Source: Candidatus Harpocratesius repetitus
GTDB taxonomy: Archaea; Asgardarchaeota; Lokiarchaeia; Sigyniarchaeales; Promethearchaeaceae
DNA length: 32,000 bases
Assembly (NCBI GenBank): GCA_021498095.1
Contig: JAIZWK010000001.1
Location: 2,820,001 to 2,852,000 of the forward strand
Direction of reading: 5' to 3'
Both the position numbers and the translations under genes were made by a program. Shown here piece after piece: positions 4,016 through 30,923 of the stretch. Below the pieces are notes generated by a model. It made no database searches. It saw only the letters and a program-made list of their open reading frames with translations, and was not told the DNA's origin. The number at the start of each line of letters is the position of its first letter. Positions within the stretch are counted from its first letter, which is position 1.

Positions 4016-5077
4016 ATGCGAATTATTGTAATTGGGGCAACAGGATTGCTGGGTTATTATACTTGCTTATTAGCCCTTAAAAAAGGACATATAATTAAAG
4101 GTTTCGCTCTACCTGAAGTGAATTTGGAGAAATGGTTTCCATCAACAATTCCATTAACTTTTGGCTCTATCTTTACCATGTCCAAAAAAAAATTAGTTAA
4201 ACAATTACAAGGAGCGGATGTGTTAGTATATGCAGTAGGGCCTGATGATAGAACAGTTCCTAAGGCTCCGGCGGAAGAATTCTTTCACAAATACTTAGTA
4301 GATGAATGTATAAAAGTTGTTCAAGCAGCTCATGAAGCAAAATTATCCCGTGTGGTTATTTTAAGTTCATATTTTACATATTTTGATAACATTCATCCAG
4401 AATACCACTTAGCAGAACATCATCCTTATATAAAAGCTAGAGTTCAGCAGGCTAAACAAGTTCTTGCTGAAAATACTCCAGAATTCCAAATTATAGTTCT
4501 TCAATTACCATATATATTCGGTTCAATACCCACCCGTATTCCACTATATAGAGATTCATTATTCAAATTCATTCTCAACATGAATCCTATCTTTTTCCCA
4601 AAAGGAGGTTCAAATATGATAAGTGTGAAGCATGTAACTGAAGCAATTTATGGAGCAATTTATGGAGCAATTTATGGAGCAATTTATGGAGCAATTTATG
4701 GAGCAATTTATGGAGCAATTTATGGAGCAATTCTATATGGCAAAGGCGGACAAACATATTTAATTGGTGATGAAAATCATTCATGGAAAACAATGATTAA
4801 AATAGTACTTGAAACATTGAATATGAAAAAGAAGATAATATCGATTCCTTGGTATTTAGCTGCCTTAAAAGGGCGCCAAATTCAAAAAGAATATCTTCTT
4901 GCAGGAAAAGAACCTGGATTAAATAATATACATATTTTTCGCGATATTGAAGCAAGGCATTTTTATTTTGATCCAACTCCCAGTAGAAATATCTTGCGTT
5001 ATGGAAGCGGGGGAATTCAAGAAGCTATTCAAGAAACAGTGAAAGCATGTTATCCTGAAAGATTTAATGCATCATAG
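4016..5077 (+). CDS. NAD-dependent epimerase/dehydratase family (extended SDR)
   Basis: Rossmann motif VIGATGLLG, a YxxxR catalytic-position motif (PYIKAR), and LQLPYIFG. Contains an internal (GAIY)n repeat. Confidence 0.85.
   Translation: MRIIVIGATGLLGYYTCLLALKKGHIIKGFALPEVNLEKWFPSTIPLTFGSIFTMSKKKLVKQLQGADVLVYAVGPDDRTVPKAPAEEFFHKYLVDECIKVVQAAHEAKLSRVVILSSYFTYFDNIHPEYHLAEHHPYIKARVQQAKQVLAENTPEFQIIVLQLPYIFGSIPTRIPLYRDSLFKFILNMNPIFFPKGGSNMISVKHVTEAIYGAIYGAIYGAIYGAIYGAIYGAIYGAILYGKGGQTYLIGDENHSWKTMIKIVLETLNMKKKIISIPWYLAALKGRQIQKEYLLAGKEPGLNNIHIFRDIEARHFYFDPTPSRNILRYGSGGIQEAIQETVKACYPERFNAS
4642..4732. repeat. Perfect in-frame 12-bp tandem repeat, 7 copies plus 7 bp
   Basis: AGCAATTTATGG x7 plus AGCAATT, counted directly; encodes (AIYG)7AI. 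Confidence 0.98.
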
Positions 5078-5179
5078 GAACCAGCAATTTTTTATGAAAT
5101 GACTCGCTAATATTCTTGATTCCAGAAGCATTTTCTATTGAAGAACACTTTACATATTCATCTTGGAAAAAATAAAAGA

Positions 5180-5263
5180 GCGGGGATAATCAAGTCTGGT
5201 CCACGATGCTGGACTCAGAATCCAGTGCATAGCGCCGCGAGAGTTCGAAGCTCTCTCCCCGCA
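5180..5263 (+). tRNA. tRNA-Leu(CAG), intronless, CCA not encoded
   Basis: Acceptor stem GCGGGGA/TCCCCGC with discriminator A. Anticodon arm CTGGA-CTCAGAA-TCCAG. Long variable arm. T arm GAGAG-TTCGAAG-CTCTC. Confidence 0.95.
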
Positions 5264-5345
5264 TCAAAAATTTCACGTTGATAATTATAGAATTCTTCTT
5301 TTTACGAAATTAAAAGTGATTTTTTTTGATCAAAACTGAACATAC

Positions 5346-5463
5346 GTAAAAATACTGATTTGATTATACTTTTTTCGGTATATTGAAATATTTTTTCTGG
5401 AAAATATTCCCTTATGCTATTGCTTGATCTTATGTTCAAATTGTAAAAATGCTGATTTGATTA
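5346..5463. repeat. 21-bp dispersed direct repeat pair (1 mismatch)
   Basis: GTAAAAATACTGATTTGATTA at 5346-5366 and GTAAAAATGCTGATTTGATTA at 5443-5463. Confidence 0.85.
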
Positions 5464-5550
5464 CAAAAAATTAAGAAAAAAAAGTAATTGGCGACAATAT
5501 GATTTTCTTTAGAGTAAATTACGATTTTTATAGAGCTGTAAAATACATGT

Positions 5551-5620
5551 ATGTATTTGTATGTATTTGTATGTATTTGTATGTATTTGTATGTATTTGA
5601 ATGGATTTGAATGGATTTGA
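5551..5620. repeat. 10-bp tandem array with a polarised change of unit
   Basis: ATGTATTTGT x4, ATGTATTTGA x1, ATGGATTTGA x2. Confidence 0.95.
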
Positions 5621-5623
5621 ATT

Positions 5624-6307
5624 TCATCGGATCATCGTAAATTTTTCGGCTTTTTGCGCTTGGTCCAATTCATTCGAGAATTTTTCGTGTTTTTTAAGCC
5701 ATCCCAGATGATTTATCTCATATTCTAATTTCTTATGCATCCTAAACTCACTTTCAAGGGCGGGAATCATCTCATTTAAATTGAATTCCTTAAATTTATC
5801 GATTGCATACTTGTATAATCTTGATTTCGAACGTAAAAGAGGTATCGCCTCTGAATACACCTCATTGTATGATAGAACATCCACTTCTTACTGAATCCGA
5901 TTAAGCCAAGAGATGGCATCTTCTATGGATTTCGGAGTGATATTCATCATCCTTTTGCGCTCTCGCTCCTTTTCTTGCCGTTTTTCTTCCAGTATTCTAA
6001 GTTTTTCTCTCTCCTTTGCAATTCGGATTTCTTACATCTTCTTTTTGATTTTTCTTTGAATTCTCACTGCAAATATAGATAAAGCCAATACCAATAAAAT
6101 GCCGATAATATATCCTGTCGGTATCAAGAATTTGGACGGATCAGGATCAATACCATCTATAAAACCATCTCTATCCGTATCAGATTTATTAGGATCCGTA
6201 TTATATAAGATTACCTCATCACCATCGCTTAATCCATCCGAATCAGAATCCGCGCTTGATTCGCTTAAACCGATGGCTCGCTCCAAAATGTCAGGTAATG
6301 TTGGAAA
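5624..6307 (-). pseudogene. Remnant of a membrane-anchored protein (DxDxDG Ca-binding repeats, TM helix, coiled coil) with two in-frame TAA
   Basis: Track ORFs 6032..6286 and 5624..5884 are in the same frame, separated by TAA (6032-6034), 47 sense codons and TAA (5888-5890). No convincing start lies before LPDILERAIGL. Confidence 0.75.
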
Positions 6308-29714: not shown

Positions 29715-29719
29715 AAATA

Positions 29720-29764
29720 GATATAAAAATGGATATAAAAATGGATATAAAAGAGGATATAAAA
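29720..29764. repeat. Imperfect 12-bp tandem array, about 4 copies
   Basis: GATATAAAAATG x2, GATATAAAAGAG, GATATAAAA; lies between convergent stops. Confidence 0.8.
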
Positions 29765-29785
29765 GATAAAAAAAATTTTAAAGTG

Positions 29786-30046
29786 CTAAAATTCGCTTGT
29801 ATCTTCCGATAAGGTAATTAATGTAGAAGATTTCTTAATTGCAAAATCTTTGCGCAATTGCATCATAAAAGCGGTCATTTCTTGCAAATTGTTTAACTCA
29901 ACCTTTATAATCAAATCATAATCACCATAAATCATATGAACCTCTTTCACTTTATCTATCTTTTTCACATCTTGAAATATTTGTTGGGTGGCACTTGAAT
30001 CAGTCACTAATAATATAAATGCCACTACTTTATCGTCTCGACTCAT
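29786..30046 (-). CDS. Stand-alone Lrp/AsnC ligand-binding (RAM) domain
   Basis: VAFILL...VKEVHMIYGDYDLIIKV...SSTLI; no N-terminal HTH. Confidence 0.85.
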   Translation of the reverse strand: MSRDDKVVAFILLVTDSSATQQIFQDVKKIDKVKEVHMIYGDYDLIIKVELNNLQEMTAFMMQLRKDFAIKKSSTLITLSEDTSEF

Positions 30047-30228
30047 TTTTTTCTCTCCATTAATATTTCTACATTTTTACATACTTTCATAAGTAAATAA
30101 CGTTCTATCTTTACTTACAGTAACTTTGAATAAAAAAAGATTTCGTTTTTCGATAAAATTAAAGATCCAGAGATCAATATTTTTTATTTCTTTGATAATA
30201 GAATCGGTGATTTATGATTAATCAAGAT

Positions 30229-30705
30229 TTAATCTTGAGGAATTACAATCATAAATTTACATCGATCTGTCTTTCCTTGCAATCGACATTCTAATTCTTG
30301 TGCAAAACAGTGCTTACCAGTCATTTTTTCTACCAGACCAGCATATAATCCTGCTTCAAAAGAGCAAAATCCTTGTGGAATTGCCATTCTAGGAATCTCT
30401 ATATCTTTACATGAATTGCATTCATCTAATTCAAATGTAATATGTTCTTTATTTTCTTCCAACACGTAGAATGTACCTAGGTGATATTGCCGCGAAATTT
30501 TCTCTAGTGCAGGAATAAGTGGTTCATGAGGTAATTCATCTGCATGTAGAGCACCTCCTAATTCATGCCCCATAAAATAGTAGATTGCATCTAACTGATT
30601 ACCTAAGGCATAAAGTGCCCCAATCTTTAAATTCCCTATATCCTTTCCTTTTTGCAAATCTTTTTTCATTTTTTGTAACATTTCTTCTAATAACATTCGA
30701 TTCAT
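30229..30705 (-). CDS. Stand-alone V4R domain protein
   Basis: FELDECNSC...FCSFEAGLYAGLVE...ELECRLQGKTDRCKF. Confidence 0.85.
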   Translation of the reverse strand: MNRMLLEEMLQKMKKDLQKGKDIGNLKIGALYALGNQLDAIYYFMGHELGGALHADELPHEPLIPALEKISRQYHLGTFYVLEENKEHITFELDECNSCKDIEIPRMAIPQGFCSFEAGLYAGLVEKMTGKHCFAQELECRLQGKTDRCKFMIVIPQD

Positions 30706-30883
30706 GATTTAACCCCTCCTAATAAGTAAAGAATTCTTATTTTTCTGCTAAATTTTCGTTATTTGTAATATTTGTGTTATTTTTTTCTCTTATTACTATT
30801 TATCTGAACTCTATGCATACAGTATGATTTAATTCTGTTCATAATGATTATCTATTCCTTTTTATAACCTTTCTATGATATTT

Positions 30884-30923
30884 TTATGACATTATTATGA
30901 CATTATTATGACATTATTATGAC
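30884..30923. repeat. Perfect 11-bp tandem repeat, 3 copies plus 7 bp
   Basis: TTATGACATTA x3 plus TTATGAC. Confidence 0.95.

Follow-up and report, generated by a model that had tools for sequence, protein, structure and literature searches.

Short tandem arrays lie within genes and just behind stop codons in a 32,000-nucleotide stretch (here called the window) of the chromosome of Candidatus Harpocratesius repetitus, at positions 2,820,001-2,852,000 of a 4.36-Mb single scaffold (C1; 31% GC, two rRNA sets, one 10-N gap). Analysis of the whole genome indicates that these arrays are probably locally born repeats of the slippage type, part of a regime resembling that of the Borg elements of Methanoperedens, filtered by selection and boosted in copy growth near a maximum of the nucleotide skew of the chromosome. 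Young arrays are concentrated near the terminus inferred from skew, a new and unexpected finding, and the window is located inside this hot zone. The proximity of arrays to stop codons, reported in an initial annotation of the window, is real but mostly ordinary as first stated.

In the proposed sequence of events, a short stretch would be duplicated in place, and further copies would be gained by strand slippage during DNA synthesis, a mechanism that we infer. Within genes, selection would allow only units divisible by three to persist, and these would be mostly A-rich and hydrophilic. Between genes, arrays would persist anywhere but in roughly the last 30 to 50 nt before a start codon, the likely site of the promoter and ribosome-binding site, and because spacers are short, the surviving arrays would land a few tens of bases past a stop. 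Copy-number growth would be boosted in about 0.45 to 0.6 Mb centered on the skew maximum (about 2.7 Mb).

Genes (3,784) were called from long open reading frames (ORFs) scored by codon usage; stops are exact, and starts are longest-ORF starts that may be placed too far upstream. A genome-wide run of a repeat finder, a check proposed in the initial annotation, was made with Tandem Repeats Finder (TRF; score of at least 50, overlapping arrays merged) and yielded 756 arrays. The 296 intergenic arrays amount to 5.6% of intergenic DNA, and among the 460 coding arrays the unit is divisible by three (3n) in 348. Because about 650 of the 756 are degenerate, the process appears to be old as well as current. 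With the criteria used for Borgs (perfect arrays, at least 50 nt, at least 3 units), 38 segments representing 33 distinct arrays were found, or 0.088% of the genome; an order-5 Markov simulation gave 0 perfect arrays. ORFs contain 22 of the 33, with 3n units in 21 (the exception sits in a dubious 58-amino-acid [aa] ORF), so that good ORF arrays keep frame genome-wide, as had been claimed for those of the window. Ten more lie between genes, where the unit is 3n in one.

Coding arrays are 48.6% A on the sense strand, against 35.9% in all coding sequence, and those with 3n units are distributed evenly along genes. The sense strand of intergenic arrays shows no such bias (A, 39.4%; T, 42.3%; p=0.35). 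Intergenic periods peak at 10 to 11 nt with a second peak at 20 to 23 nt, and periods of 12, 15, 18, and 24 nt are depleted between genes. The 20- to 23-nt peak is partly harmonic, and intergenic 3n arrays may have been counted as parts of ORFs. A comparison of 8-mers across units told little, as long units share AT-rich words by chance.

The family of this genome also includes closed genomes of 6,035,313 bp and 4,324,194 bp. Sampled over 400 kb each, this genome reaches 168 TRF arrays per Mb, whereas the two closed genomes of the family have 105 and 50 and a closed genome from the same order has 72. The lineage as a whole thus shares the trait, which is most pronounced in this genome. Strain FW102, probably the source of this genome, is a family-level relative of MK-D1 with a scaffolded two-contig nanopore assembly and two rRNA sets; its species takes its name from dispersed repeats that account for 4% of the genome (Wu et al. 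2022, PMC8813620). The 4% counts non-tandem repeats (length, at least 100 bp; identity, 95%), and the paper contains no description of short tandem arrays, of a frame rule, or of a chromosomal distribution.

Perfect segments (at least 30 nt, at least 3 units) are unevenly placed along the chromosome. The interval 2,422,478-2,865,371, 10% of the genome, holds 37 of the 66 (expected, 6.7), and its scan log-likelihood ratio of 42.5 compares with a null maximum of 9.8 over 200 permutations. The same interval shows no enrichment of degenerate arrays (54 of 650; expected, 66). The turnover of skew was located independently of the arrays, with the coding-strand effect removed: corrected cumulative G-C is lowest at 0.53 Mb and highest at 2.73 Mb, and cumulative T-A peaks at 2.70 Mb. 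Within 250 kb of 2.73 Mb are 27 of 55 distinct perfect arrays (expected, 6.3; p=6e-12), and at most 2 are found within that distance of the skew minimum. The zone around 2.7 Mb is probably, judging from skew alone, a replication-termination zone. The process had been called local in the initial annotation, and so it is, but the locality is that of a region of about 0.5 Mb linked to replication skew, not that of gene ends.

Arrays in the zone have more copies (median, 3.6 versus 2.5 elsewhere) and shorter units (14 versus 19 nt), and among arrays with at least 3 copies, identity is at least 90% in 62%, compared to 29% elsewhere. Perfect two-copy duplications (14- to 200-nt units) are not enriched in the zone (3 of 19), so the regional boost seems to act on copy-number growth or homogenization and not on first duplication. 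The zone is ordinary in coding density and composition and holds syntenic core genes; given these genes and the ordinary tetranucleotide composition, an integrated or otherwise foreign element was rejected as its cause. No description of chromosome-scale clustering of young arrays at a skew-inferred terminus was found in the literature searched.

Repeat instability is known to be stimulated by fork arrest or termination, and Bierne, Ehrlich and Michel reportedly found in the 1990s that rearrangement of tandem repeats increases where forks are arrested, as at E. coli Ter sites. It is possible, as a tentative reading, that forks converging or stalling over a broad zone opposite a single dominant origin boost slippage in existing repeats here, so that repeat expansion and homogenization would be driven by replication termination. 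Several observations weigh against this. The terminus is placed by skew only, and gene-orientation switch points at 1.93 and 3.71 Mb disagree with it. Orc1/Cdc6 genes lie at 0.71 and 0.90 Mb, the latter adjoining PolD, and a third lies at 2.23 Mb. The chance that one zone matches one skew maximum is roughly 0.1-0.15. The zone is only faint in a relative of another genus (G011), at 4 versus 1 perfect arrays per 400 kb, too few to judge, and no real perfect array occurs in the 105 kb of the congener G002 syntenic to the zone, this being a metagenome-assembled genome (MAG) with many 100-N gaps. In separate checks of strand composition, arrays showed no flip at the inferred terminus. The 45 high-identity intergenic arrays are T-rich on the plus strand on both sides of the inferred terminus (29 of 45; mean T-A skew, +0.21; p=0.009), independent of transcription direction, which may be a multiple-testing effect.

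The assembly itself might be suspected as the source of the arrays or of the regional excess, since, if it is that of FW102, it was produced with Canu from nanopore reads, scaffolded, and Pilon-polished ten times (PMC8813620), and repeat copy numbers can be miscalled. Such an artifact is highly improbable: long reads span arrays of 50 to 500 bp, the reading frame is preserved in ORF arrays, MAGs of the same genus built from short reads have their own arrays at the same spacers, and coding density stays even along the genome. Outside the zone, imperfect arrays differ by substitutions (16.5%) more than by indels (3.6%), which argues against residual nanopore errors. A survey of mismatch-repair and polymerase genes, likewise proposed in the initial annotation, offers no explanation for the repeats. 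The genome has MutS, a second MutS-like gene, MutL, two family-B polymerases (PolB), and PolD, and NucS alone did not turn up in the genome search; missing mismatch repair was rejected as a cause on the strength of MutS and MutL.

Borgs are extrachromosomal elements of Methanoperedens with pervasive tandem repeats (Schoelmerich et al. 2023, PMC9879509); perfect repeats average 0.62% in Borgs, and in Methanoperedens they do not exceed 0.01%. The initial annotation saw a Borg-like mix in the window, and the likeness holds for most sequence features. Arrays in both are perfect, head to tail, locus specific in their units, and far above background (here that of the Markov simulation); about two-thirds are in ORFs, with 3n units there (21 of 22 here), and the sense strand of coding arrays is rich in A. 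Between genes, most units are not 3n (1 of 10 are 3n here, and 26% when all arrays are taken; 14-38% in Borgs). Some arrays begin inside gene ends, copies are noninteger (partial flanking units), and arrays are absent or different in close relatives, which here applies to the spacers of cdc48, thioredoxin, and gene 28851-29714 and to an SDR gene.

The likeness fails in other respects. The carrier is a cellular 4.36-Mb chromosome with rRNA operons and syntenic core genes and not a giant linear extrachromosomal element, and its 0.088% is intermediate between Borgs and Methanoperedens, about one-seventh of Borg density. Most arrays here are degenerate, unlike those of Borgs, and intergenic arrays lack the sense-strand A bias, whereas Borgs are A enriched both in and between genes. 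Young arrays are regionally concentrated here, a clustering that goes without mention in the part of the Borg paper considered (PMC9879509).

At the level of single arrays, there is also a resemblance to known bacterial repeats. Bacterial variable-number tandem repeats (VNTRs) and minisatellites form by replication slippage. As in bacterial VNTRs, a local seed is duplicated, with later change in copy number apparently by slippage, and arrays survive in nonessential spacers and in frame in proteins. Like slippage VNTRs, arrays are in-place amplifications of preexisting single-copy sequence, as at the SDR gene and at the seed AAAAAATAGAT in G002. The units (10 to 23 nt) and the density are above the expectation for a typical prokaryote, the baselines here being three relatives and the Markov simulation. 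Phase-variation contingency loci (units of 1 to 9 nt, in promoters or 5' coding regions, switching by frameshift) were considered and rejected, as the units are 10 to 23 nt, frame is kept, and arrays are depleted upstream of starts.

Within the window, TRF was used to detect arrays, flanking stops were taken from ORF calls, and flanking genes were identified with Pfam, which also supports the RAM-domain, V4R, and inositol-monophosphatase-family genes next to arrays. All seven arrays listed in the initial annotation (two coding, five intergenic) were recovered where it had placed them, that at 21047 being weak. It had treated the five as all the intergenic arrays, overlooking a sixth in a divergent spacer without a stop. 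The features are as follows.

4642..4732, plus strand: coding array of a 12-nt unit, 7.6 copies, 100% identity, encoding (GAIY)7 in frame (TRF).
4016-5077, plus strand: NAD-binding SDR/epimerase-like gene (Pfam), host of the (GAIY)7 array.
3256..3290, minus strand: coding array of a 12-nt unit, 2.9 copies, encoding TKRN repeats in frame (TRF).
2937-3803, minus strand: CAAX-protease-like membrane protein gene (Pfam), host of the TKRN array.
5548..5619, no strand assigned: intergenic array of a 10-nt unit, 7.2 copies, 96% identity (TRF); nearest stop at 4 nt, that of an 86-aa ORF.
5180-5263, plus strand: tRNA-Leu(CAG), within the long "convergent" spacer of the 10-mer array, which lies 284 nt downstream.
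5624-5884: 86-aa orphan ORF whose stop adjoins the 10-mer array; low coding score, no Pfam match.
20020..20093, no strand assigned: degenerate intergenic array of a 31-nt unit, 2.4 copies, 79% identity (TRF), in a divergent spacer with starts on both sides and no stop.
21047..21109, no strand assigned: weak intergenic 12/24-nt array, 70-86% identity, 22 nt past the stop of gene 20236-21024.
21128-21274, plus strand: possible 48-aa ORF, its start 19 nt past the weak 12/24-mer array in the same spacer.
22266..22400, no strand assigned: intergenic array of a 23-nt unit, 5.9 copies, 99% identity (TRF), 42 nt from the cdc48 stop and 58 nt from the start of an inositol-monophosphatase-family gene.
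22443-24770, minus strand: cdc48 (Pfam).
22427..22435, minus strand: T9 tract, 8-16 nt past the cdc48 stop and upstream of the 23-mer array, read from the sequence.
29712..29764, no strand assigned: intergenic array of a 12-nt unit, 4.4 copies, 92% identity, beginning on the TAA of gene 28851-29714 (0 nt).
30874-30923, no strand assigned: intergenic array of an 11-nt unit, 4.5 copies, 94% identity (TRF); as a 22-nt unit in 3 copies it spans 30859..30923; 42 nt past the thioredoxin stop, with the V4R gene starting 153 nt beyond it.
30966-31295, minus strand: thioredoxin gene (Pfam).

Comparison with relatives supports the view in the initial annotation that repeats are being actively generated in an archaeal chromosome. 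In orthologues of the SDR gene from five family members, the site of the array is a single AEA[IV]VGA[IV] (AEAIVGAI), to which (GAIY)7 here adds 24 residues. After the same HYGFD* end of gene 28851-29714, G002 has AAAAAATAGAT, a single-copy seed of the 12-mer, and a second congener, G001, has an unrelated ATTCTCA-type repeat in the same 3' spacer. The cdc48 spacer is 235 nt here, 135 nt of it array, and about 40-65 nt in G002, G010, G012, G007, and G011. Downstream of thioredoxin, each of three genomes of this genus has different repeats (in G001 an unrelated repeat of ~24 nt, in G002 a coding repeat plus another AT-rich repeat), and the spacer is short in G010 and G011, which represent two other genera. 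Because relatives show single-copy seeds, short spacers, or unrelated arrays, the arrays are, on these alignments, born in place from existing sequence, repeatedly and independently, in lineage-specific expansions. Two points count against this account. Neither slippage itself nor copy-number polymorphism was observed, and two window spacers bear independent arrays in congeners; some 3' flanks may be intrinsically prone. When genome spacers were mapped onto 1.17 Mb of G002, 99 were placed, 8 of them with arrays, and the comparison of the two groups (2 of 8 versus 13 of 91, p=0.35) was underpowered. The 23-mer unit and the cdc48 flank were searched as exact patterns in collections of metagenomes and genomes, with 0 matches, and 90%-identity protein clusters contained only a congener and no repeat-length variants.

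Other features of these loci were noted in passing. The thioredoxin here has an 18-residue acidic C-terminal tail, EEIDPLESLDSESENN (30966-31020, minus strand), that is absent in relatives, and the end of the G002 thioredoxin gene is lengthened by its coding repeat of about 24 nt. In G013, of another genus, the spacer downstream of cdc48 (L006 2061-2457) is about 390 nt and has its own repeats (GCTAAAT in 4 copies and a GAAGAAATA-type repeat) and a possible small ORF. A DDE transposase gene adjoins cdc48 here, and tRNA-Leu(CAG) is ~17 kb from cdc48, compared to 2-5 kb in relatives, with an hdr/flx-type cluster in between. The possible 48-aa protein (21128-21274) has a basic N terminus (RRPRNRNRNQK) and one C-terminal transmembrane helix, with GGAG ahead of its start.

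The initial annotation stated that five arrays begin within 42 nt of a stop. The nearest-stop distances are indeed 4, 22, 42, 0, and 42 nt, but one of these stops belongs to the unsupported 86-aa ORF, for which no homologue was found in the related loci compared and no paralogue in its own genome. Random placement in the five window spacers put all arrays within 42 nt with P=0.005, or P=0.016 with a 50-nt promoter keep-out, values for which the 42-nt threshold was picked post hoc and two spacers hold unannotated features. That the cdc48 and thioredoxin arrays both lie at exactly 42 nt is correct but coincidental; genome-wide there is no spike at 42 nt, and just 3 arrays lie at that distance.

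Genome-wide, convergent spacers hold 72 intergenic arrays, co-directional spacers 157, and divergent spacers 66, so that a flanking stop is lacking for 66 of 295 (22%). The median spacer is about 100 nt long. Short spacers had been offered as a partial explanation of the proximity, and rightly: 64.6% of the 229 stop-flanked arrays lie within 42 nt of a stop, and random placement in their own spacers already gives 53.9%, so most of the proximity is spacer shortness. Testing distance to stop against random placement, as the initial annotation had suggested, thus reveals an excess over the plain null, but the excess is gone once 30-50 nt upstream of starts are kept free (64.3%, p=0.48), and the same keep-out also reproduces the stop bias of young arrays alone. 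Spacers flanked by 2, 1, and 0 stops hold 0.72, 0.49, and 0.38 arrays per kb when all bases are counted (p=8e-4) and 0.72, 0.67, and 0.63 when 50 nt per start are subtracted (p=0.73). Averaged over genes, arrays cover 1.8% of positions 1-10 nt upstream of starts, a share that climbs gradually to about 3.8% at a distance of 60 nt; past stops, coverage is 3.3% over positions 1-10 and is highest, at 6-6.6%, between 30 and 80 nt. Stop proximity is spacer shortness plus avoidance of the promoter side, and the stop itself is no attractor.

Three results run counter to this conclusion. Arrays in divergent spacers are closer to predicted starts than random (median, 27.5 versus 47 nt), in part, it may be, due to over-long predicted starts. 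In convergent spacers, 52.8% of arrays are within 10 nt of a stop, compared to 42.1% at random (p about 0.008), an excess that would be attributable to arrays beginning in the 3' end of a gene. Even with the correction, the density of young (high-identity) arrays is still about 2.4-fold lower in divergent spacers (n=7, p=0.10).

The initial annotation proposed instead that the arrays are coupled to transcription termination and produce tunable 3' untranslated regions (UTRs). Arrays made by or selected for termination, as tunable terminator or stability elements in 3' UTRs, would explain why stop-side coverage in the first 80 nt is 1.6-2 times start-side coverage for all arrays and 2.5-4 times for young ones, why 101 arrays in co-directional spacers are closer to the stop, against 56 closer to the start (p=4e-4; 20 of 26 for high-identity arrays), why arrays in convergent spacers abut stops above random, and why independent arrays recur past the same two stops in congeners. 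The 12-mer at 29712, whose end is 21 nt from the stop of the convergent RAM-domain gene, also gives four T5 tracts on the minus strand past that stop. We nevertheless find this explanation improbable. Coupling is unsupported because the promoter keep-out removes the excess, 22% of arrays have no flanking stop, no spike exists at 42 nt, and intergenic arrays have no sense-strand A/T bias (p=0.35 for all, 0.47 for high-identity arrays). Counted per free base, density is the same whether a spacer has 2, 1, or 0 stops, and coding arrays of the same kind are evenly distributed along genes. T5 runs come from only one of the five window arrays, where they would serve only the RAM-domain gene; sense-strand T-runs are absent in the other four, and the units are unrelated and share no common motif, as first noted. 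The T9 tract after cdc48 is probably an archaeal oligo-T terminator, judging from its letters and position, and T-rich tracts follow the cdc48 stop in all relatives compared. The 23-mer array sits beyond that tract, where the transcript has probably already ended, between it and the promoter/Shine-Dalgarno region of the inositol-monophosphatase-family gene. The 3'-UTR role finds no backing in RNA folding of arrays, which gave no structure signal (z-scores, -0.9 to +0.6), or in an Rfam search of the window, which matched no family. A bacterial-type promoter/terminator scan, a model not applicable to archaea, found no hairpin terminators at arrays.

A more general role, in which arrays are selected DNA or RNA elements such as regulator binding sites, nucleoid or histone phasing sequences, or noncoding RNAs, is also unlikely, despite periods of 10-11 and 20-23 nt that equal about one and two helical turns. 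The 23-mer array is placed 58 nt upstream of the start of the next gene, as a binding site might be, and an RNA role was raised by the Borg authors in the part of their paper considered (PMC9879509). Units are, however, unrelated between window loci, orthologous spacers of relatives have no arrays or unrelated ones, near-perfect identity indicates youth and not conservation, folding gave no structure signal, and the 20- to 23-nt peak is in part a harmonic of 10- to 12-nt units (11/22, 12/24). Local birth followed by selective filtering remains the preferred account of both the window arrays and their genomic distribution.

Three other repeat loci were recorded in the genome scan. The largest short-unit array of the genome (16-nt unit, 30 copies, 99% identity) lies in a divergent spacer at C1:2,809,748-2,810,230, 10 kb upstream of the window, with an array of an 8-nt unit in 20 copies 600 bp from it. 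The 100-kb bin with the most TRF arrays (39), C1:100,000-200,000, also has the most deviant tetranucleotide composition (0.0156 versus about 0.006). A 374-bp unit in 3.0 copies at 97% identity straddles an ORF end at C1:1,399,761-1,400,878 and belongs to a class distinct from the short arrays.

Borg-type repeats were presented, in the part of the literature considered, as a hallmark of giant extrachromosomal elements that is nearly absent from the host chromosome. A similar regime, with in-frame coding repeats, unique intergenic arrays, and rapid turnover, is found here on the chromosome of a Lokiarchaeial relative of cultured Asgard archaea, where it adds new segments to ordinary enzymes. The stop-codon proximity of its arrays reflects ordinary geometry and promoter avoidance and should not be taken as a termination-coupled mechanism. 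The concentration of young arrays makes the role of replication termination in repeat growth testable in an archaeon whose replication program is unmapped. If that role is true, young multicopy arrays would mark the termination zone, and the zone would be a regional generator of protein segments and spacer DNA.

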